Shown here: positions 1,275 through 63,173 of the stretch, piece by piece | How the letters are laid out: every line of letters starts with the position of its first letter | How positions within the stretch are numbered: the first letter of the stretch is position 1 | Assembly (NCBI GenBank): GCA_951804945.1 | Contig: OX638150.1 | Location: forward strand, 107,942,001-108,006,000 | Source: Podarcis cretensis | Taxonomy: Eukaryota | Length of the DNA stretch: 64,000 nt | Reading direction: 5' to 3' | Notes under the pieces: model-generated | Database searches by the model: none | Told to the model about the DNA's origin: nothing | The model's input: the letters and a program-made list of their open reading frames with translations, nothing else | Translations under genes and position numbers: made by a program

Positions 1275-23918
<22,644 letters not shown>

Positions 23919-23933
23919 GACGTTTGTCAGGGA

Positions 23934-24014
23934 TCACGGAGTCCAAAGGGTAGCGACTGGCGGCTCCAAGGGCGGGGAGCAGCCGCAGAGCCTCGGCCAA
24001 CACGTCACGGACAT
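23934..24014 (-). promoter_or_regulatory. uORF in SETD5 5'UTR (26 aa, MSVTCWPRLCGCSPPLEPPVATLWTP)
   Basis: ATG at 24014, TGA at 23936-23934, 15 nt before the main ATG, same exon. Confidence 0.6.
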
Positions 24015-25936
24015 GGGGAAACCTGCCAAGGGGAAAAGAAACAATGCACTGCATTTTTGTGTATCATTGCCACAGACATATGGTTCACCCTGCCTGCAAA
24101 ACCATCCTAAAGTTGAGGACAGTGCCGGCTGAAGGAAGGAATGAGAAACTTCAGAGGATGCGTGTTGTCTCTTGCCTCCGCATTACTTTTACATAATCTC
24201 CTCTCAAATATGGCCACCTGGTTCACATGCAGATATTTCCTCGTGCCATAAAAGAGAATGCCAAGCACAGGCAAGAGGCCCGCAGGCCTGTCTTGCAAAA
24301 GACGGTCACATGGGTAAAACTGCCAGTAGGGGAGGCAGAGCACAACGTGTGTGTGTGTGTGTGTTGAGATAGAATCCCAGAGCAGCCAATGAGAAAAGCA
24401 AGCAGCACGGAAGGCATTTATTCATTTCTGTAATGATTTATTTCAGAATGATCCTCATGACAACCCTAGTGCCAAAATCCAGTTCCTGAGCTTCACAGAT
24501 GTGCATGAGATGCAAAGTCATCCCCCAAATCCCTCATGCTCACTTGGGACAAGGTTTAACACAAGAGGAACAGGGGGAAAGGGGCATATCTGAAATGGTG
24601 GTGAAAGGGGGAACAGTCGAAGGCAGATGGCTGCACAATGAAGGAAGTAATGAGCCCAAAGGCCGTGCCTCTCTCTGTTTTGTACTCTGATACTAAAGTA
24701 CAACATACAGTACATGTGACTCTCTTCAGACCTGAACACAACGTGGACATTTAAACCACTGTGTTACTTGGAAATATACAGAGAAGCAGCTACCAGGAAA
24801 GGAATGGGCCCTACTCTTTCATATATTTTGCGGAGAAGAGTAACTAAACACACACAGATCCACCATTCAGATTTGGTATGCTATGTAATCCAGCATCTAC
24901 ACTCAACTGCAACTAAGTACAGAATGAGAAGCAGCCCTGATACAAAGGCCAACTTGAGGGAGGGGGGAGGACTTAAGTAAGGAAGGGAGAATGAAGTGAG
25001 AGTTGCAGTGGATGGTTCGGCCTGCTGGATGCAACCTGTCTGTGCCTGCCTCAACAGAGCTCAAGGCCTTCCAGTAAGTGAGAGGATATCTAGTTTGTGC
25101 CTTGCGGGTGTATCCGGGGCTGTGCAGAGGGGCTATATCCTTTGGGAATAGATTTGTACCTGCAGAACTGATCGCTTGTGGGAGGCGTCTACTCCCAAGC
25201 TCTTGGAGGGCAGCAGGAGCTTGTGGGTTAAAGCAGGTGGGGAAAGCTCACCAGTAGGTGCTGCTGGCTCTAAAGGGTTCAATGGTCGACTATCCACCTT
25301 GCCTTGCCACAAACTGCTTTTGTGGAACCAATGGTTCTTTGCCCATGGTAGACATATTACTAATTAACAATCTGTTCATTCCTACTACAGAGAACTTGGA
25401 ACAGCTGCTGCCCCCTGTAGCCTTTCAAGAACTTTCCTACCTCCACAAATTACCCATATGCAAGGATGAGGTCTGTGATGTGATCATGGTGGAATGTGGG
25501 AGAAGCAAATAAATGTTGCACTTTCTTTCTGACCTAGTTCCTTTGCACTTTCTTCCCATTCTTCAGGGCTAGCCATGCCATCAGGGCAGCTCTTTGCGTG
25601 GGAAACAAGCATTCAAGCTTTGTAATAATTACTAGTACAGGTTGGGCTAAATGCAGAAGGCACAGAACTTAACATGCATCGCTCCCAGGCACCATCAGGT
25701 ATCAAATCACTTCACCGATAGGCAAGCCTAGAAAAGGCTAGTAATTGTTCCCTTCTGAAAGAGGGTGTAGAAATATGGATCACATCTTGCTAGGAGGGGC
25801 TGGAAAATTTCTTCAGAATGTTTCTGCAGTTAATAGCATTATCTGCAGCCATTAAAAGGAGCTACATCACATGCACATTTCTACAGAGGAAGTATTCACC
25901 TGGCACATTAGAACCTGTGTGTGAACGCATGCCTGA

Positions 25937-28754: not shown

Positions 28755-28902
28755 TGAGTGATAGCTCAGTTTGGTAGAGCATGAGACTCTTAATCTCAGA
28801 GTTGTGGGTTTGAGTCCCAAGTTGGTTGAGAGATTTCTGCATTGCAGACAGTCGAACTAGATGACCCTTGTGGTCCCTTCCAACTCTACAAATCTATGAT
28901 TC
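28755..28902 (+). mobile_element. tRNA-Lys(CTT)-derived SINE with CR1 3' tail
   Basis: tagctcagtttggtagagcatgagactcttaatctcag head followed by gtcccttccaactctacaaatctatgattct. Confidence 0.8.
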
Positions 28903-50202: not shown

Positions 50203-50333
50203 NNNNNNNNNNNNNNNNNNNNNNNNNNNNNNNNNNNNNNNNNNNNNNNNNNNNNNNNNNNNNNNNNNNNNNNNNNNNNNNNNNNNNNNNNNNNNNNNNN
50301 NNNNNNNNNNNNNNNNNNNNNNNNNNNNNNNNN
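50203..50333. other. Assembly gap (131 N)
   Basis: Run of N. Confidence 1.
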
Positions 50334-50848
50334 TCTGGATGTAACGAGAGGAGTGCGTGTGAATGTATGTAGATATATATGCACACACGTATATGTATAT
50401 GTATACACATTCACACGCACCCCTCTCTTCACATCCAGGTGCCTCCAAAGGTGCAGGCCAGGGAGTGTGACCTCTTTCTTTCCCCTCCGACATGCGGGAG
50501 AGGCTCCCCTTCCCCTGGAAGAGCCAGGCTGAGGTGCTTCTCTCCCTCACGCCCTCCCCGCCCCCCACATCCCTAAACCCCCCACCGCAGGGCAGAGAAG
50601 GCATGGAGAGAGTTCCCGGGCAGCTGGAAAGATGCGGGAGCTTGAAAGGAGGCGGTGAGAGAAGGGGCTGGAGCAGAGGAAGGACCACCGAGAAACAAGC
50701 CCTCACCACCGCCACCGCCACCACCATAAGTTTCCCGCCCCTCCCCCTCCATGGGTCTCTTTCCCACCCGCCTCCCGCCTTTTGAACGGGTGTCCCCTCT
50801 TCACCCCACACGCCCCCTTTTTCCTGCTCTTCCTTTGCCTTGGCTGAC

Positions 50849-51035
50849 CTGTCCGGCCCGTTGCCCGGGCCCCCGGCACTAGGCCCTGCTGGGCGCCACG
50901 GTGTTTCCTAGGCGGCAGGCGGGACCGAGAGCTCAAGCTCCACAGAGCAGCGGCCGCGGCCCCTCCCCCTCCGCGGCACCAGCGAACAGCCAACAGCTCC
51001 TCCTCAGCAGGCCGGGCGGAAACGGCACTGAGCGC
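50849..51035 (-). other. SETD5: Probable non-coding exon 1 of SETD5 (5' end approximate)
   Basis: GC-rich segment just downstream of a CCAAT/GC-box cluster, ending at GGACAG|gtcagc. Confidence 0.55.
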
Positions 51036-53816
51036 ACGGGGATTCCCAGCGCTGGCGCCAGGGGCGCCCCAGCCACGCCCACCGGCCCCACTCATTGGCC
51101 GGCTTTTCCGCGCGATCTCCACCCCCTCCGCTCTTCCTCCCGCCCCCGCCTCTCCCGACTCCTATTGGGCCCCTTCTCTTAGGGCAGGCGGTCGCCCCCA
51201 TCCCGTCCCTCTGTAAGCCCCAGCGGCCCCAGCCGCCGCCAGCTTCCCAGAGGCGCTGCCCTATTGGTTGTTGGAAACGCCACTCAGCTCCGCGTCAGCC
51301 TCAGCAAAGGCTATAAAAGCAAGCGCGGCAGCTTTCCCAGGCTCAGAGCAGTGCGGGTGCGGTGGGTGGATGGATGGGTTCTATAATAGGGAGGAGAGAG
51401 CGAGAGAAGCTGTTCAGGGCAGTTTGGCTGCTGCCCGCGCCTCTGCGCACGTGGGTCTGCTGCTCTACGTGCTTAAGGGCGAGGCAATCTTCCGATTGGC
51501 TCGTCTTTAGCCAGTCCCACGTGGGGTTAAGTGCTGCTTGGGGACACGTGGCATGGGAGCGGGGTGGGGGGGAGGGGCCGGGCTCAGCGCTGGCTCCGGA
51601 GGGCGCTTCTGTGCATGCGCGCCGAAGAACCGGTCTGGGAGGAAGAGCTGGCTGCAACACGGCGCATGCACCCTCCTACTGGGTGGCTGGGCTGCAGGCG
51701 GGCGGGGGTGACTGCAGGGGAGATTCGCGCCAGGAAAGGGGGTGTGTGCTAGGCTGGAAGCGCTCTCGTTACTTAGGGCAGGTTAGGGCTCGCACTGCTG
51801 CAGGATGTAATGCGGGCTTTGCCAATAAGCCCTATTGTGGCGGCGGCGGCGGCGGCCGCCCTCTCTTTCCACCGTCCGCCTGCTGCCCTCCCCACGCCAC
51901 GATCGACTGTCTTTGCCTGCTCTGCATCGCTTCGCGCTCCCCCCCTCCTCGTGATCTTGTATCCCAAGCCTATAATGCACGTATTTACTCGGGGCCCTGC
52001 CGAATTAGCCGGGATTTGTTCCCAAGTAAGCGTGCACAAGATCCGGCGGCCCTAATAATTTGTAGCTTACCCTGTCCACACACACCCAAAAAAAATCCCC
52101 CCCCCCCCTTTGCACAGGTTTCCTTCCCTGAGAGTAGGAAATCCTCTGAGGGAAGGGCCGGTGTTCTTCTCTATAAACATCGGCGGTGCTGTGCACACAG
52201 TAATTTCATCTGCCGCTCTCCTTGCGCAGCCTGAATTTGGGCGTACATCCTTTTCTAACGCCCGTCCGCCCTTTCTCACAAAGCTTCGTATTAAAAATGA
52301 GGAGCAGCACTTTTTAAAGAAGGGAGGGAACGCGTCTGGGGAGAGATCGAGACCAGTTCTGTACCAACAATGGAGTAAAAAGTGATGGTCGGAGGAGCTC
52401 CCTGTTGTGTCGCGATGGCCTGAGGTGCTCATTGCAAGTGCTCCATCACGAATAGGCCCTTTTGCCTGTTGACGATATGTTATCGCAGAATTCAGAGAAA
52501 GCCCAGTATCAAATTTTGCAGTGCATTAAAGCATATGCTGCAGTCAATGTGTTAATCATTAAGGTGCCACACAAGTCTCCATTGTTTTCGCCGCTATAGG
52601 CTAAAAGGGCTACGCCTCTGGAAAGTCAAGATAGCTTTGGCAGCTCTAGAGGACTTGCCAGCCACTAAAAACAACATCAGTTAGAGTGATATAGAGGTAC
52701 AAGGTTTAAAGGCTGGGGTACAAGACCAGGACTCCACATGGGCAGAGATGGAGAATCTGTGGACTTTCAGGTGCTGTGGGACAACAGCTCACCTGGTCTA
52801 TGACCTTTGGCTGTGCTGGGTGAGGCTGATGAGAATACTGCCTACAACATCTGCAAGGCCACAGGTGTGTTAATATAAGCAGCACCCATCTCTGTCGGTG
52901 AGGAGTCCTGGTCTGGTACCCTAGACTCTCTGTACCTTATGTGGGTCATACTCTGATATCTATTCTTGATCCAGATGGGCTGTTTAGCCTGCTTGCATTT
53001 GAAAAGCCAAGTGTGGCCCTCTGGCCATCTGAAGTGTCTTTCTTAGATACATTTGCAGGATGCAGTTCCAGGAAGTCTTTTCTCAGCCACCGTCTCTCCT
53101 GTGTCTGCGTAGATTTGTCTGCCACCCCCCTCCCACCTTCCCCCACTATGGGAGCCGGCTAAACACAGACCTGCGTCTGCCGCAGAGCAGGAAGCTGCAC
53201 AGCTGAGCTGCGTGCACCTAAGCCTGGCAAAATTAATGAGCATGCCCCTGGCTGCATAGTTATATTTTCATCCCTCTTTTCAGACTGGGATTGCTTCCCC
53301 AAAATGGGTCAGAGCAATTAAAACTCAGTACACAACGCCAGCGAGGGGTGCCAAACAGAAATGGTAGAGGCTCGCAAATTAAAAGGCACGTATGGGGAAA
53401 GTGCTGGTGGCAGGGGAGGAGAGATGATCTGTTTGGCAATGCCGTGTGGCTCTAGCCGAGGCTGATTCCCTTTTGCTGTAGATTGTGCTGGGACAGGGGT
53501 GGCGTACTGAGAGAGGGACAGAGGTGGGCACTGAGAGAGGGCCTCAAGCTTCCCTCTGCAGTTGCTGCCACTAAGGCAAGGAGACCCGGTAACAGTCAAG
53601 GACAGGGAGAAAAAAGTGGGAACTGCAGGGATATGTTGCAATGTGGAGAACTCCAGTTTTCCAGTAGGGTGTGTAGATGCACATATATGGTGTTCCATAT
53701 TGCACACACACGATAGGGCAATCCACCTTTTTGTTTTCTAGCAGGGCTGCTGTTTTTCAGGGCTACGTGACTCACAGAAAACCAGCAGATGACTTTCCCC
53801 ATGACTCTTATCTGCA

Positions 53817-53820
<4 letters not shown>

Positions 53821-53849
<29 letters not shown>
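53821..53849. repeat. (TG)n microsatellite
   Basis: Direct reading. Confidence 0.95.
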
Positions 53850-53851
<2 letters not shown>

Positions 53852-54605
53852 CTTTACCTACTAAATATCTGCTTTGTCACTCAGCGGCAAGTCCTGGCTG
53901 CGTTACCTCTAAACTCAAGATCCACAAATCCAGAGTCTTGTATTTTTAGTTCTTAGGCCCTCCAAAACTCCCTTCCCATCTCGGTATTCCCTGTCTGCGT
54001 TTGCAGGATGTAGTAACACTTAACATTGGCGCAATGGGACATGAGGCTGCCTTCCGGTAGGCTGAGATTTTGGAAGTCCCATCCCCCACTTTAAAAAGAA
54101 AAAAAAAGGAGCAGCAGCGGCCACAACCCTGTTTCTATATCAGGCCCCATAATGCAACAGTCCACCCTCCCTCCTCCGCCAGGATGTGAAGAACAGGAAA
54201 CTGGCACAGCTGCTCCCCATGTCTGTGGCAAAGCAGGGGACAGACAGCGGCACCTGGTGGCCAAAAAGGCATTGTACACGCTGGATGATTAGGTTATTTT
54301 GAGAGCGCTGGGCTGGCCGCTGTGAAAAATATCCTTGCTCACTGTCACCAGGCTTGTTGGGTCTTCCATCAACAACTTAAATTCATATTGGGGGGTGGGG
54401 AGGTGATAGACAGCAGTTTTCATTGCCTGGTCATATGAACCCAGAAAACTGCTTTACAAAGTATTTGTCCGTCTAGTCCACTATTGCCAAAGTCTGGGAT
54501 GGGGTGTGCGGGAACACCTGAGGCCTATGAAATGTTTCTGGACTACAACTGCCCTCATCCCAGACTGCTGGGTGGGTCTGAAGGGGGCTGGGCCCACCAT
54601 CCAGG

Positions 54606-55026
54606 TGTTAGAATTCCTGCTCCGTGATTGCAGTCATGGGAGTTCTATGATGGTGTATGAATCCACAGAGCGGGAAGTGACGGAGACAGGATGTTTGTGT
54701 TACTGTGTTCTGTGAAGTGGGACTATTGTCCTTTGTTTTTTCCCTCTTTGCTGTCCGATGCTAGAGAGAGAGGGAGCCATGTTGCAGTGCTCCGTGTGTG
54801 TTTCTATGTAAATAAAGTAGATTAGCCAAAATGCTGAGGTCTGTTACACAAGCTGCGAAGACTCTGCGGATCCCGAAGTGTGTTGGTGTCTGTTGGCATC
54901 AGTCGCTGTGATGTTCGGGCTGAAGAAAGCTTTTGAAGCTCCCAATCGACCAGGAGGGAGAGAACATGCCAATTGGGCATGTGTCTCTGCAAGGGTCCTA
55001 CTCAAGTGTAGGATGAGCCCCTGACA
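54606..55026 (+). mobile_element. Solo LTR (421 bp) inserted in a degenerate hAT MITE
   Basis: TGTTAG...CTGACA termini, 5-bp TSD ccagg, aataaa at 54811. Confidence 0.85.
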
Positions 55027-55609
55027 CCAGGTTCCCCAGGTCCCGCCAAATCAGACTAAAACTCATCTTCTCCACCATCCTGTACCCAGCAGCAGCAGCA
55101 AACCCAATGCCACTGGGGAGTCCCAAGTAGGACCCCAATGCTGTAGCCCTCTAATGTTATTTCACAAAACGATAAAGGAGATGGAAGGGGACCCAAGGTC
55201 ATCTAGTCCAACCCCCCGCAATGCAGGAATCTCAACTAAAGTATCCAAGTCAAGTCACAGTCTGCCCTGACTGGCAGTGGTCCTTGAGGGTCTCAGGCTG
55301 AGCTCTTCACCATCCAATGTTCCCTGCTCTTTTTTCAGATGTCAGAGACTGGAACCGGAACCTTCTGCATGCAAAGGATGTGCTGTGGCAGAAAGGAAAA
55401 TAAATATAAATGTATTCAGTAGAATTTTGACCTCCCACATGACAGAGGAACAATCCTTCTCCCTGGACATCTGTGGTTAAGAGACTGTTGGTTCTCATTC
55501 CTGCTATGAACCAGACTCGTGTTACTTTTTTGGCCTTGCTTACATCAAGGGTTTCTCTTCTCACAAACAGCTTCATGCTCAAAACATGGAACCTCGTGGC
55601 AGATTTGTA

Positions 55610-55827
55610 CAGTGGTACCTCGCGTTACAGACGCTTCAGGTTACAGACTCTGCTAACCCAGAAATAGTACCTCGGGTTAAGAACTTTGCTTCAGGATGAG
55701 AACAGAAATGGTGTGGCGGCAGCAGCGGGAGGCCCCATTAGCTAAAGTGGTGCTTCAGGTTAAGAACAGTTTCAGGTTAAGAACGGTCCTCCAGAACGAA
55801 TTAAGTTCTTAACCTGAGGTACCACTG
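55610..55827. mobile_element. Tc1/mariner MITE, family A
   Basis: Same TIRs, TA TSD. Confidence 0.9.
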
Positions 55828-57774
55828 TATGCTTAGGATCCCAAGTTGGTGTTGGAGCTTGCTGGAAGCTATACCTCAACTCAGCACTTTTATATTGCTA
55901 CTAAGGCAGAATTTCCTTTTTTTCATGTTTGTTGATACACAGTACTTATAAATACTGATATTGAGTGGTATTCAAACAAACTTTAGTCAGAGTAGACCTA
56001 CTGACATTAACGGACCTAACCTAGTCATGCTCATTAATTTCAGTGGGTCTACCATGAGTAAAACTGAGCTGAATAACATCTGCAGTCTGATGATGCAAAG
56101 TAAGATTTACCCGGACTAGTATATTACTATAATGCAAGTCATTTAAATGCGATGTAGGATGTCAGGTATATGCAAATTTAACGTTTAATTAAAAACACGA
56201 TACGCTTGGAAGCTTGCATACATTTTTAATCATTTATACAGCACTATCATTGTACATGGAACCCTTACAGCGTTGATTTAAGGAGAAAAAAAGGAGGCAG
56301 GTCCCTCCCCCCATGAAGCAGCAATCTAAATTTTGACAGTATTAGATAGAAAGGGGGAGAGGAGAGGAATGTGAGCAAATGCCGTTAAAGATACTTAGAG
56401 GAGTCTTTTAGTCCTCATCCACGTGGCTAGACATGATAGGACACGGCCAAAGGCTTCAACGAGAAAAACCCAGCGAATGTCGAGAGAAAACACAGTTGTT
56501 TCACATGGGTATTCACACTGATGTATGAACCAGACCAATGGATTGCAGTGCCACCCACCTGCAATGCAGACAGCTGTGGCCACAGGGTGGTGCCTGAACT
56601 GCCACGCAAAGCCCAGCTTACCATAGCACAGTCTCCCTTAGTTGTCACGAAGGGGAGACCAAGGGGCCAAATGTGCTCCCCAAATCGCCAAATCTGGAGC
56701 CAAGAGGGGCAATGAGAGGAACCGGTGGCGACAGCAGGAATGCCACAATTTTTTATTTACCATACAGGTGTTTAAAAAAAAAGGCACAGGAGCTACCCTA
56801 GAAGGGGGGCGAGGCAAAACTAGCAAGCTGAACGCCTCCTGTAGAAACAAGTGCAGAAGCAGCAGGGGAAGCACACGCAACCACCTGGCGAACGCACATA
56901 TATGGGAACGAGTTCTCTTGCAAGAAGCGGGATTGGCCTTCGAGCCTTGAGAACAGGGATCAGGCTGCACACTGCTTTCACCCAGCTCCTAAGTGGAACC
57001 CGTAGCACAGATGGGAATACCAGGCAGCTCCCAACGTTACTCTTTCCCACCCTCTATCTGCCTGCCTGCTTCCACTTTTCTAAACCCTCTGTGCTTGCCG
57101 CCACAGAGAAGCAAGGAGATGGGAGGCAGCTGGCGCTCTCTGCCCCTGTTCCAACCCTCCAGGCTTGCCAGCGCTAAATACGCCAGGCAATTTGTTTCTT
57201 TACTTTGCCGGTACATAAACTTAGCAAATTGCACACCTACCAGCAGGACCCTGTATTACGAGTCACTCCAAACCATCGGGGGGTTTATGACTCGGCTGTA
57301 AACATCACGTTGTCTTTATTCCAAGAGGTTCTTAACCTAGTTGCAAGCTTTTTTGTCTTCCCCTACCCCTCCGCCTGCAACATGGGCTTCTGCCAGCAAT
57401 TTGTCTCATTGTGTGGCAAAATACTTGACCTAAATGGCAGGGTGAGAGAGGCAGGCTAACAAAATGCTTTTATTGGATGACACACACAAAAAGGACCCCC
57501 CACTCAACCCTCCTTACCCAGAAACGCTCCTCATGACCTGTTAAAACGGGGCCAGGCTATTAAACCTGCTGGTTCGTGCTGAACTCGCCTTTTAAGCACG
57601 TAAGATGAGCCTGCAGGATCAGGCCAGTATGGCCCGTCTAGTTCAGCATCCTGTTCTCACAGCGGCCAACTGGATGGCCGCGGGAAACCCTCAAGCGAGA
57701 TCCCAGCACAAGAGCCCTTTCCCTCTCCGGTGGGAATCCAGCAACTGAGATTCAGAAGCCTCCAAGTGTACACA

Positions 57775-58005
57775 AGAAGAAGAAGAAGAGTTTGGAGTTG
57801 ATATCCCGCCTTTCACTCCCTTTAAGGAGTCTCAAAGTGGCTAACATTCTCCTTTCCCTTCCTCCTCCATAACAAACACTCTGTGAGGTGAGTGGGGCTG
57901 AGAGACTTCAGAGAAGTGTGACTGCATGTGGAGGAGCGGAGACACGAACCCGGTTCCCCAGATTACGAGACTACCGCTCTTAACCACTACACCACACTGG
58001 CTCTC
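57775..58005 (-). mobile_element. Squam3-type SINE nested in CR1
   Basis: Head gagagccagtgtggtgtagtggttaagagcgg on minus strand, (ctt)n tail. Confidence 0.85.
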
Positions 58006-58264
58006 ACAAGCCTTGCCACCATGGCTGGTAGCACCAGCTAGGCTTATCCTTCATGACTTTGCCTAATTCTCTTTTAAAGCTATCCAAGTTGGTGGCCGTT
58101 GGAGCGAGTGCAGTAGCTTAACTACACAATGTGTGAAGTGCCGTTCTTCATCTGTCCTGAATCTTCCAACATTCAGGTTCGTTGGAGGACCATGAGTTCT
58201 AGTGTCGCAAGGGGGGGGGGGCTTCTCTACCCACCTCCTCTAGGCCATGCCATAATCCTCTATC

Positions 58265-58405
58265 ATAGCCTTTCTCCACCTGTGAGTCCCCGGATGTTTT
58301 GTTGAACTACAACTCCCATCACGCCTAGCTAGCAAGGCCAGAGCTCAGGGATGATGGGAGTTGTAGTCCAACAACATCTGGGGACCCACAGCTTGAGAAC
58401 CGCTG
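58265..58405. mobile_element. Palindromic hAT MITE nested in CR1
   Basis: actacaactcccatc...gatgggagttgtagt palindrome, as in the 42538 copy. Confidence 0.75.
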
Positions 58406-60744
58406 CTCTCCTCCAAACTAAAAAGTCCTCAATGCTGCAACTTTTCCTCCATCCCCTTCGGTTGTCCTTCTCTGAACCTTCTCAAACTCTGCAATATCCA
58501 TTTTGAGGCGAGACAACCAGAACTGGACGTTCTAGTATTCCAAATGCAGTCGCACCATAGGTTCGTATAACGGCATGATGAGATTATATTCAGTGCCTTT
58601 AATAATGACATTAAAGGCAGGACATTTGCCTTTTTCACAGCTGCTGCTGCTGCTGCTGCCAACATCTTCATGGAGCTATAGACCATGACCTCAAGGTCTT
58701 GGGTCCTGGTCAGTCACCACCACTTCATATTCCATGGGGTTATATGTGAAACTTAAGATTTTTCTTGCCCCAACACTTGTTTACATTGAATTGCATTTGC
58801 CATTTTGCCACCCACCGGAGAGATCCTTTCGGAGCTCTTTTTGTTTTAACGACACTGAACCATTTAGTATCGTCAGCAAACCTTGGGCCAACTTGTTGCC
58901 TACTTCTAACTCTAGATCCTGAATATAACAAGCTAAAAAGTGCAGGTCTCAATACCAATCCTTGACGGCCCTCCACTTTTTACATCTCTATTCTGAGAAT
59001 TGACCATTTATTCAGACTCTGGGGCCTCCAACCTAAGCAATCCCTGATCCTTATTCCAGGACTACTAAGCTTACTCAGGAGTCTGTAGTGAGCTACCTTG
59101 TCAAAAGCTTTTTGAAAAGTCACAAGTCCACTGTGTCAACTGGATCCCCTCTATCTATATGCTTGTTAACACTCTCAAATACCTCAACAGGTCCGTGAGA
59201 CAAGACTTGCCCTTACAGAAGCCATGCTCGCCTCTGCTCCAGCAATACTTGTTCTTCTATATGCTTGGTTATTTTATCTTTAACAATACTTTCCACCAGT
59301 TTTCCCAGGACAGGCGTTAAGCTAACCGGCCAGTGATTTCCAGGATCCCTTTTTGATGTTACATAGGTTACTTTCCAGTCCTTGGCTATAGAGGCTGATC
59401 TGAGTAACTTATTTTTGTGAGAAGTCCTGCAGTTTCACATTTGAGTTCTTTGAGAGCTTTTCAGGTGGGCGCCATCCAGACCTGGCAAGTTGTCAGTTTT
59501 CATTTTGTCTGTTAGACCTAGACTTTCGTCTCTAAACACCACTAACTGCCTCAGTTCCTCAGGCTCCATCCTGCAAAAAAGTATTTCAGGCACTGCAATC
59601 TGCCCTATAACTTCCACTGTGAAGACAGATGCAAATAATTCATTCAGCTTCTCCATCTCCTCATCCTCCTTTGACCTCCTTGTCATAAAGGTCCAACCAC
59701 ATCCCTAGATGGTCTCCTGCTACTAATGTATTTAAATAACTTCTTTGTTGTTAGTCTTAATGCTTTTAGCAATGTGCACCTCAAATTCCTTTACGCATCC
59801 CTGACTGTGTATATGCACCAAAGCTTTTGCTTCCTTCTTGTCCTTTTCATTTAGATAAGGCTTCCGTATTTTGAAAAGGGCCTCCTTAATAACTTCCTTG
59901 ACTCTGCTCTTTAATCATGCTGGCATCCTATTGGCCCTCATGACATCGTTCCTGGTCTGCCACAAACATTCCTGCTGAGCTTCCGATATTGCCTTTTTAA
60001 ACAACTCCTAAGCATTTTGGAATGACTCAATCCTCTGGGCTTCACCTTTCAACTTCCTTTTTTATAAGTCTCCTCACTTGGGGAAAATTTCCTCTTTTGA
60101 AGTCAAATATTGGGCCACACCACAATACCGTGCCACGTTTTAAAGGAGAGGAGTTTGACACGGCAAATCTTATCTGGACTGCAATATCCCGGGCCTCTGG
60201 GTGAATGGCCTATTTGCAACACTCATAAGCTTTTTCTTTTCCAAATTTACTATAACAGAACCATCGTAATTCCCGTGGACATAGAGCTATGCAACCAACC
60301 AGCAGAGTTTTTTTATATTAATTGAAGCTACAGCTAGAAAAAGACCTTCAACTAGAGTTCCACCTGAAAACAAAATTAGGGGGTGGGGGTGATATTACAT
60401 CTTCTGTTCCAACTTTTGACATAGAATTGGCAGCCATTTCCACAGCTGTCAATGTGTACTGAAAACTGAACTGGACAAGCAGCAATTCAGGTGTTACAGG
60501 TGGCATCTAGAGTTACCTATGTATTTTTTTAAAAAAAAACACTTAAAAAATTAAAGCAGACAGCTTTTCTCATCACGTCATCTGCATGCTGGGATAAACG
60601 ACATCTAGGGAATATCTGTTTCAACAGGCAGAGAGCCCTGTCGGAAAACAGCTGGTAACTTTGGTCGAGCAAACCACACACCAGGTTTACCTTCTTTCAT
60701 CTAGAGAAGCTAACAGTTTTGGCCTTCAACTGGCAGGCCCACTG

Positions 60745-60864
60745 ACATGGATGTAGCCAAGGGGGCAACCCCCCCCCCAAAAAAATCAATAAAAACACAT
60801 AGCTAACTGAGGTCCTGCCCCAACAAAAGACCTGCCCCCCCAAAAAATATTGGCTACGCCCAGA
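60745..60864. mobile_element. Short hAT-like MITE (degenerate)
   Basis: catggatgtagcca...tggctacgcccag imperfect TIRs. Confidence 0.5.
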
Positions 60865-63173
60865 GCCACTGACCCCAATTTTATGACCCAAGACTTGAGT
60901 GAATACAACTCTATATAAAAGCTAAGCCAAGCCATGCAATCCCAGGCTCCTCTATAGACTGTACCCCCAAGTTTCTGCTATCATAAAAATTCAAAATGGC
61001 CGCCATCCATTCCTTTCACAGCAGAAGAAAACGGTGGGAAAGGACGCAAAGTTCAAAAATGGATTGCAGGTTGCAGTTTGGTATAGGGGAGAGTCCTGGA
61101 AATATAAATGTCTAGCAGGTAGAAAAACCGCTACAACAAGAGACCCACGTTCACACCAAGCCTCCATCACAGACCTGGTGTGTGGGACTCTTGTTCTGAA
61201 TGTGTGAGAATCTGGAACAAACACTAAAACATGCCTTAGGGAGATGTTCTGGGAACGACAACAAGACAAGCAGACATCTGTTTTGCCACTTGAGAAAATG
61301 CCCTGCCACTCGACAAGTACCTGTGCAGCAGAGCTCTCAAGTCCCGTCCCACCCCCCACCCCCGCTTCCCTTTTCATGAATCCCTTCTCAAGAGGCGCGT
61401 TTTTCATTTATTCGTTGAATACTGTTGTTCTACCGAAACAGGAACACTCACATTGGGTTTTTAATCGGACAGGAGGGGAAGGAAAGGAACGCACACCGCC
61501 GAACACCAGCAAAGCTGCATTCTCTTCTACATTGGTCCTTAGCTCTAGGCTAGGTAGCAAACATTGGGCCTTCCAGGTTTTTGCTGAACGGCCAACTTCC
61601 AACACACCCCAGATTATTGGTCATGCTGGCAGAGGCCAATGAGAGTTGGGAGTCCGGCAACATCCGGAGGGCACCGTGTTGACTACCCCTGCTTTGGCTG
61701 CCTCTCTCTGCTGCTTTAAACCAAGGGCAGGCAGACAAACGTCACAGTCTAATTTCATGTGGGTGGCTGGAAAAGGAGCAAAATGGGGGGTGGAGATGAA
61801 AAGGCAGGGGAGAAAAGGACGGTATCCCACCCACTTTGGACCCGGATCCTACCCACTGCTAGCATGCAGCCCTAATGATTACCCCCACCCACCCAGGAAT
61901 ACGACCCCCCAGCAGGGGAAAAAAGTTCTCCATGTCTGATTTAACCTTCCTGTGTCAGGTATGGCCTATTCCTGGATGTGCCCAGCACAGCCCTTCCTTA
62001 TTCCATCCCCCATCCTTTGGCTGGAGACGTCATGGTACATTGCGAGCTCTTACTTTCAAAATCCTTTTCCACCCCCACCCCTCCAAAGTCATCTGAAAAG
62101 GGTAACAGGAAGGATGCCGCAAAGATAGGAAAACAGTCCACAAGCAGGAATACAAAGACAAGGGATTTCAACTACTTTTGGCTAAAACAGAGATAACGAC
62201 GGCTTCCTAGGAGCAGTTCAGCGACAGAATAAGCAGTCCAGAGGGGTTGCGGCATCTTCATTCCTTCAATAATAATAATAAAAATGCTGCCCCAAACGAG
62301 ACTGACAAGAGGTGGCGATGCGTTAGGTACAAGGTCAGCCTTCCCGTTGCCAGGTGACCCCGGCATTCCTTTCATGGTTTCCCTCCGCACGGAAGCTCGG
62401 GCCACACCTGTACATCATCTCACCTGGTTTGAGGGCGGTATGGGAAATGCAGACCTATATCCATGACAGAGCCACTGGGGAGAGAACCCTAACAATCCAA
62501 CTGGGGGAGAGAGCTTTAAAGCCTCCGCCTTACTGGAAAGAAAAAGAAAAGAGGGGGGGGGGAGAAAAGGAGCGCTCCTCTTATCGTAAAGGAGAGCCGC
62601 CCCTCCGTTCGGCATGCTGCCCTGACGGGCCTCGAGAGCTGCTGTCGGCAGGAGCTTCCTCTTCCCACGAGAAAAGTGTGTGCGCACACACAGGGGCGGC
62701 GGCCCCACGGACTCCACGTGGGGCGGACAGAGCCACGCTCTGAAGCACTTCTCAGTTTAGCAGTTTCAGCTGCCCGGTCACCTGGTTCACCATCTCTTCC
62801 TCCCCCATGATGGCGAGGACTGTGTGGGAGCCCGTCGGAACCTGGAACACAGAGAGGACACCCCACAGCTGGGGCAAGCAAAGCACTGAGGAGGGAGCTG
62901 CCAGAGAGCTGGGGCCGCACCTCGATCTACCGTGTCCTCACCCCTGCTGTATACTTTCGAGTGCTCCCAATGTGGGGTGTGACATCACTGAAGCAGTCAA
63001 GTACAACGTTTCCTGTTTGCCCAGAGTGGACACACAGGGGAACGTTGCTCCAGCCGGGAGGACTTCCTGTCACACCTGGTCTGGAGCATCCTTCCCCTGC
63101 GTGTGACCAGGTAGATGGGCGTGACCCTGGCAGACCATATAAAGGGGCTAGTCATGCAGCCATCTTTCTCTTA

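Follow-up and report, generated by a model that had tools for sequence, protein, structure and literature searches.

A predicted divergent non-coding transcript at the SETD5 CpG island of a lizard, bordered by a UBA-PTH2 gene rather than by THUMPD3

The SETD5 promoter of pig, mouse and human works in both directions and is common to ROSA26, which in mammals lies between SETD5 and THUMPD3 and overlaps the 3' end of THUMPD3 with its own 3' part; the pig ROSA26 promoter and first exon reach 85-91% against those of mouse, rat and human (sections of PMC4099177). The mammalian ROSA26 RNA is non-coding, spliced and made in all tissues, and the locus serves for transgenes because it accepts insertions and keeps their expression stable. 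An enhancer put at mouse Rosa26 increased the expression of both Setd5 and Thumpd3 (PMC6375575, in part), and the species with a described Rosa26 are all mammals in the excerpted text of PMC9704577. The question raised by a 64-kb stretch of Podarcis cretensis DNA (the window) is whether a lizard possesses such a unit beside its SETD5 gene, and of what kind, since a sequence-only reading had proposed a divergent, TATA-driven transcript there.

The orientation of SETD5 was established from its coding exons. The SETD5 exon frame matched 574 of 605 candidates, and the named ones among the 120 matches listed were almost all SETD5. The best of these, from Podarcis lilfordi, gave 15 tblastn exon matches on the minus strand, running from 23918 to 1275. 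The TATA box at 51312 on the plus strand, discussed below, therefore points away from SETD5, as had been proposed. The start-codon exon spans 23847-24024 (minus strand; tblastn), with its ATG at 23918 and a splice acceptor before 24024. A non-coding exon 1 is predicted at 50849-51029 on the minus strand, with a donor (CAG/GTCAGC) at 50848 and a start predicted at 51029, the sole minus-strand initiator match in 50990-51100. The P. lilfordi model CAI5767709.1 uses an exon at 50907-50848 and then continues at 24024, which supports the view that exon 1 of SETD5 ends at donor 50848; between 50848 and 52792, no other minus-strand donor reached at least 7/9. None of the recovered SETD5 proteins carries sequence ahead of the usual N-terminal motif (matches above 24200 were of low complexity), and neither three of the SETD5 exon frames nor a 305-codon frame matched a Pfam family.

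Two further features were observed within SETD5 introns. A 131-N assembly gap in intron 1 (50203-50438 region) is followed by a TA/CA-rich inverted repeat with 46-nt arms and sub-threshold miRNA matches. At 28762-28820 (+) lies a tRNA-like element that Rfam scores at 36.6 bits over model positions 8-63; it is the only Rfam match in the window at gathering score and probably the head of a tRNA-derived SINE.

The 5' end of SETD5 and the divergent unit are spanned by the sole large CpG island in the window, at approximately 50700-52300 (~1.6 kb). The island was called in 500-bp segments with GC>0.55 and CpG o/e>0.65; qualifying segments start at 50701-51801 and, elsewhere, just at 62901-63001. 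TATA, initiator (BBCABW), U1, E-box, NRF1 and YY1 sites were called by generic motif definitions. Chance levels were taken from 2000 dinucleotide shuffles of 50700-52400.

On the plus strand, the motifs of the sequence-only reading were all found where it had placed them: the TATA box TATAAAAG at 51312-51319, 33 nt 5' of the predicted +1; an ATTGG at 51263-51267, 45 nt ahead of the TATA box; a half-CRE, CGTCA, at 51293-51297; and two candidate 5' splice sites, CAG/GTTAGG at 51782-51787 and CAA/GTAAGC at 52026-52031, each a 7/9 match to U1. The sole BBCABW match in 51320-51370 (+), at 51342-51347, puts the predicted +1 at A51345, only 2 nt from the start near 51343 that had been suggested. TATAWAWR occurred in 74 of the 2000 shuffles and the exact TATAAAAG in 29; of the 37 TATAWAWR matches in the window, the 51312 site alone lies in surroundings of 61% GC with 12 CpG. 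The donors constitute weak evidence, because sites matching U1 at 7/9 occur at 0.67 per kb per strand and the candidate donors are no denser than this background.

The two predicted starts, 51029 and 51345, enclose a predicted shared (bidirectional) promoter of 316 bp at 51030-51344, which holds a GC box at 51140-51145 and CCAAT boxes at 51094-51098, 51164-51168 and 51263-51267, all reading CCAAT on the minus strand. Altogether four CCAAT boxes, from 51094 to 51499, are oriented toward SETD5; at least five CCAAT/ATTGG motifs were present in 328 of the 2000 shuffles, so that the CCAAT count is not above chance. In purely descriptive terms, GC skew runs between -0.09 and -0.32 across 50400-51199 and between +0.02 and +0.25 across 51200-51799; it flips near 51200, and each predicted RNA thus starts G-rich, the pattern that outward transcription of both arms would give.

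Downstream of the predicted start, the first exon of the divergent RNA is predicted at 51345-51781 (+), 437 nt long and ending at donor 51782. Within it lies a block of factor sites (51448-51669, unstranded) that consists of three CACGTG E-boxes, an ACGTG at 51467, a CCAAT box at 51495-51499 and NRF1-like sites at 51613-51620 and 51662-51669. The E-boxes, at 51448, 51518 and 51545, fall within 100 bp and account for three of the seven in the window; at least three were found in none of the 2000 shuffles, and the sequence-only reading had passed over them. The block is inside the predicted exon and, seen from the SETD5 start, 420-640 bp upstream, and either arm could therefore make use of it. 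The first poly(A) signal 3' of the TATA box, an ATTAAA at 52290-52295 (+), marks the predicted end of an unspliced form. The predicted exon 1 folded no better than its shuffles (z -0.51), and Rfam gave no match at 51.3-52.3 kb; its 29 matches in 50334-56300 were all below gathering score.

What lies beyond the divergent arm decides whether the unit can be the one known from mammals. On the minus strand at 62752-62841, behind a splice acceptor, is the last coding exon, with the stop, of a UBA-PTH2 gene annotated as 'probable peptidyl-tRNA hydrolase 2'. This exon (62841-62752) matches Pfam PTH2 at E 2.3e-4 with a score of 21.8 bits, narrowly short of the cut-off (23), over profile positions 88-115 of 115; it also matches archaeal Pth2 weakly, and is identical in 30 of 30 residues to Podarcis muralis XP_028575559.2, 'putative peptidyl-tRNA hydrolase 2'. 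In the search with this exon, 16 of 17 candidates passed and carried PTH2, 15 of them together with PF22562, which we take to be a UBA-type domain. The exon rules out SETD5-THUMPD3 adjacency in this lizard.

Several side observations concern this gene. Its named UBA-PTH2 matches came from squamates and amphibians; the 16 included neither mammals nor birds (weak evidence of absence), and the literature matches listed included nothing on a UBA-PTH2 paralogue. Protein isoforms X1 of Lacerta agilis and P. muralis carry nine extra residues, corresponding to 27 nt ahead of the usual acceptor (62752-62868 region). In CAI5767709.1, a model of 1735 aa, the PTH2-like gene and SETD5 are fused into one. 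It passes from 62781 to 50907-50848 and on to 24024, all on the minus strand, by way of a donor internal to the last PTH2-like exon and an acceptor within exon 1 of SETD5; it represents either (i) a genuine read-through transcript, or (ii) an annotation merge.

Gene order in other squamates was judged by accession order, an indirect proxy, in the 15 species with both accessions (P. lilfordi not counted). SETD5 and PTH2-like accessions lay within three numbers of each other in nine (P. muralis, L. agilis, the Varanus RefSeq set, Rhineura, Elgaria, Gekko kuhli, Paroedura, Heteronotia and Phrynocephalus) and further apart in six (Tiliqua, Sphaerodactylus, P. raffonei, Eublepharis, Pogona and Euleptes); in the Varanus GenBank set they were seven apart. 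By this proxy, the arrangement looks general in squamates. Chicken SETD5 is likewise not adjacent to THUMPD3, its upstream 14,327 bp holding two LOC genes and then 'PLNXB3' (PMC10290409, in part); nine of the 17 supplementary files of that paper mention no SETD5, THUMPD3, PLXNB3 or PTRH2.

These data bear directly on the possibility that the lizard unit is a true ROSA26/THUMPD3-AS1 equivalent between SETD5 and THUMPD3, usable as a safe harbour. The unit does have the same head-to-head placement with respect to SETD5 (PMC4099177, in part), and its ATTGG, which occupies -82 to -78 relative to the predicted +1 in an island whose CCAAT count is not above chance, can be set beside the conserved CCAAT at about -56 of mouse Rosa26 (PMC3484877, in part). 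However, the neighbour is UBA-PTH2, with accessions near those of SETD5 in most of the squamates compared, chicken SETD5 is unlinked to THUMPD3 as well, and just ~4.9 kb separate the predicted plus-strand start from the covered 3' region of the PTH2-like gene. We therefore regard this explanation as very unlikely. The sequence-only reading had assigned the transcript to the ROSA26/THUMPD3-AS1 syntenic position and had itself named a THUMPD3 that is not adjacent as a refutation; with the last exon of UBA-PTH2 inside the window, that part of it has to be given up.

Whether the divergent arm is transcribed was approached through four sequencing runs (X1, X2, X13 and X19) of 20 listed, from related species, whose contigs were placed at 86% likeness. 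These contigs are unstranded and of guessed RNA type, and show presence rather than strand, start, end or level; the run shares are small (0.05-0.06) and may stem from repeats. Uncovered bins served as a silent-stretch control, although absent cover proves nothing, and a human-sequence filter may have removed SETD5 contigs. Three of the four runs, from three studies, have contigs over 51326-52231: X1 and X2, which come from two studies of organism A, and X13, from organism B. Contig depths, in the order X1/X2/X13/X19, were 0/0/0/0 at 50420-50872; 1.42/1.53/0/0 at 50873-51325, in part of the bin, upstream of the TATA box; 15.5/7.72/8.42/0 at 51326-51778; 6.4/3.52/1.51/0 at 51779-52231; 1.04/0/0/0 at 52232-52684; 0.45/0.36/6.45/0 at 52685-53137; 0/0/1.11/0 at 53138-53590; and 0/0/0.69/0 at 53591-54043. 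The fall in depth at the bin edge beside donor 51782 and a computed X1 end at ~52305 fit the predicted exon and poly(A) signal, with the proviso that contigs cannot show ends or levels. X19 (15 million letters; same species label as the best-matching DNA run) gave no cover at the divergent unit and is uninformative, because it has almost no cover on the PTH2-like 3' region either. Among the 15 joints listed of 310, none fell at 51.3-52.3 kb. Just beyond the island, a MITE-like inverted repeat (52710-52927; 42-nt arms 134 nt apart) may explain the scattered cover in its bin.

The same runs outline the 3' end of the far neighbour. Long contigs of X1, X2 and X13 extend along 56210-62845, with holes, and two of them continue for 406 and 425 letters past 62845, departing from the genomic sequence at the boundary of the PTH2-like exon in the manner of spliced RNA. 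A 3' UTR of 6.5 kb for the PTH2-like gene is accordingly likely at 56210-62751 (minus strand, from contig cover), converging on the divergent unit; contigs from three studies end at 56210-56213, a weak hint, and an ATTAAA is found at 56230 on the minus strand. This likely UTR retains several repeats. Frames at 58.7-59.7 kb resemble what we presume to be a broken CR1-type LINE reverse transcriptase, and a double YY1-like motif at 60993-61006 is the sole such plus-strand match in the window.

Could the RNA at 51.3-52.2 kb instead come from the minus strand, either from an upstream SETD5 start served by the CCAAT/E-box/NRF1 block or by read-through from the PTH2-like gene, with the TATA box incidental? 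The CCAAT boxes are oriented to SETD5, X1 and X2 include cover 5' of the TATA box, and CAI5767709.1 joins the PTH2-like gene to SETD5. That fused model, however, treats 50908-62780 as intron, no good minus-strand donor exists in 50849-52791, GC skew is positive over 51200-51799, and the plus strand offers a TATA box and an initiator at the correct spacing; we consider a minus-strand origin unlikely. We assign no greater probability to generic, short-lived divergent transcription (PROMPT/uaRNA), or DNA traces in the runs, with no stable gene and with TATA box and donors present by chance. CpG-island promoters are commonly transcribed in the divergent direction (PMC3882496, in part), a TATA match arises in ~4% of shuffles, the donors sit at background density, and the stretch has neither structure nor an Rfam match. 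On the other hand, assembled contigs were recovered there from two organisms and three separate studies, and TATA box, initiator and donor follow one another in the right order and spacing. The divergent stretch is thus probably transcribed: of the divergent transcript that had been proposed, the promoter-like plus-strand site back to back with SETD5 stands and is joined by contig cover of 51326-52231 in three of four runs, while strand, start and splicing remain predictions.

The sequence-only reading had also stated that the unit holds no credible protein ORF, and in doing so had missed a 286-codon ATG ORF at 51374-52234 (+). This frame would fit a young single-exon protein-coding gene starting at 51345, with its ATG at +29, its stop at 52234 and a poly(A) signal 56 nt on; it sits within the predicted unspliced transcript, and an ATG ORF of its length was reached in just 12 of 2000 shuffles. 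Yet searches revealed no homologue at E<=1 among 5.8 billion proteins of 167-534 aa and no match among 1.84 billion representative proteins, the best Atlas score being 0.76. Neither did the frame exhibit codon periodicity (chi2 7.0, p 0.32; the intron median is 5.55, and SETD5 has a median of 38.9 and a minimum of 7.1). The frame also passes through A8/C12 and GGC tracts, and its ATG is preceded, 4 nt before, by another ATG in a different frame. A coding gene is accordingly highly improbable, and the ORF is likely a non-coding by-product of GC-rich DNA; lacking both homologue and codon periodicity, it leaves the original statement valid.

Taken together, the observations lead us to favour, with some confidence, the interpretation that the stretch is the second arm of a bidirectional CpG-island promoter at the SETD5 5' end, yielding a non-coding RNA that runs away from SETD5. 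We prefer it because of (i) the SETD5 orientation and exon-1 donor, the TATA box, the E-box triplet and one initiator per strand at a fitting distance, and (ii) the GC-skew flip, the contig cover in three of four runs, the want of a good minus-strand donor at 50848-52792 and the non-coding look of the ORF. Against it count the unstranded contigs of guessed RNA type, the X1 and X2 cover 5' of the TATA box, the uniformly SETD5-ward CCAAT boxes and donors at background density. Under the bidirectional model, CCAAT- and GC-box factors would hold a single open region between the starts at 51029 (SETD5) and 51345 (divergent RNA), and TBP on the TATA box, together with the initiator, would focus the plus-strand start at 51345. 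U1 binding at donor 51782, 437 nt downstream, would let the RNA escape early termination and become more stable than a short-lived upstream transcript. Copies left unspliced would terminate at the 52290 poly(A) signal, and a longer form would run into the 3' end of the PTH2-like gene ~4.9 kb away. The divergent RNA is probably a by-product or a local tuner of SETD5 transcription.

How, then, does the bidirectional unit compare with known systems? Like mammalian ROSA26 (mouse Gt(ROSA)26Sor, human THUMPD3-AS1), it stands head to head with SETD5 (SETD5 exon-1 donor at 50848 on the minus strand, TATA box at 51312 on the plus strand), with a predicted common promoter whose activity is likewise a prediction, a CCAAT-type motif (ATTGG) a short way ahead of the predicted start, and a predicted donor after exon 1, which would open an intron at the place used for knock-ins in mammals (PMC4099177 and PMC3484877, in part). 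It differs in that its far neighbour is UBA-PTH2 and not THUMPD3, so that nothing in the lizard unit is antisense to THUMPD3, and in its consensus TATA box: the available sections of PMC3484877 report none for mouse Rosa26, and its authors added one to their constructs. Because the unit does not lie between SETD5 and THUMPD3, and the likeness is one of position relative to SETD5 only, we do not file it as ROSA26/THUMPD3-AS1. It is likely one of the ordinary divergent lncRNAs that CpG-island promoters make, with a likeness to ROSA26 on the SETD5 side only.

The promoters of long upstream antisense transcripts (LUATs), known from genes for transcription regulators, have been linked to a distinctive GC-skew profile and to large CpG islands, and are mostly TATA-depleted (PMC3882496, in part). 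The lizard unit resembles them in its large CpG island, its chromatin-regulator partner gene and the opposite GC skew of its arms and, if the runs are RNA, in a transcript seen without exosome knock-down. It departs from the depletion trend, and its consensus TATA box is atypical for the class, given that LUAT promoters mostly lack one. A counterpart in aim is the chicken 'cROSA' (PMC10290409, in part), which came from a search for a ROSA26-like site in another sauropsid with SETD5 and THUMPD3 unlinked; its authors picked the side of THUMPD3 and passed over the region upstream of SETD5 (14,327 bp) as gene-rich, whereas the lizard unit lies on the SETD5 side.

A divergent non-coding RNA from a CpG-island promoter is in itself ordinary, and the value of this one is practical, in reptile genetics. 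The titles and abstract beginnings listed from the open-licence literature contained no reptile ROSA26-like site or safe harbour, and a short, testable candidate would thus be useful, if its RNA is plus-strand, broadly expressed and spliced; with both neighbours close by, safe-harbour use is put forward as a candidate only. More speculatively, the ROSA26 unit may predate its mammalian setting, the SETD5-divergent promoter and first exon stemming from the amniote ancestor and being active in lizards, and THUMPD3 having replaced UBA-PTH2 on the mammalian line only; we think this possible, though doubtful. If it is true, the real ROSA26 of reptiles and birds would lie beside SETD5 and not beside THUMPD3, where chicken cROSA was chosen, and knock-ins in reptiles could be aimed at the intron after 51782 as a ready-made promoter trap. 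SETD5-THUMPD3 synteny, the usual route to ROSA26, fails in this lizard, and a mammalian ROSA26 recipe applied to lizards must reckon with another neighbour, whose likely 3' UTR ends ~4.9 kb off.
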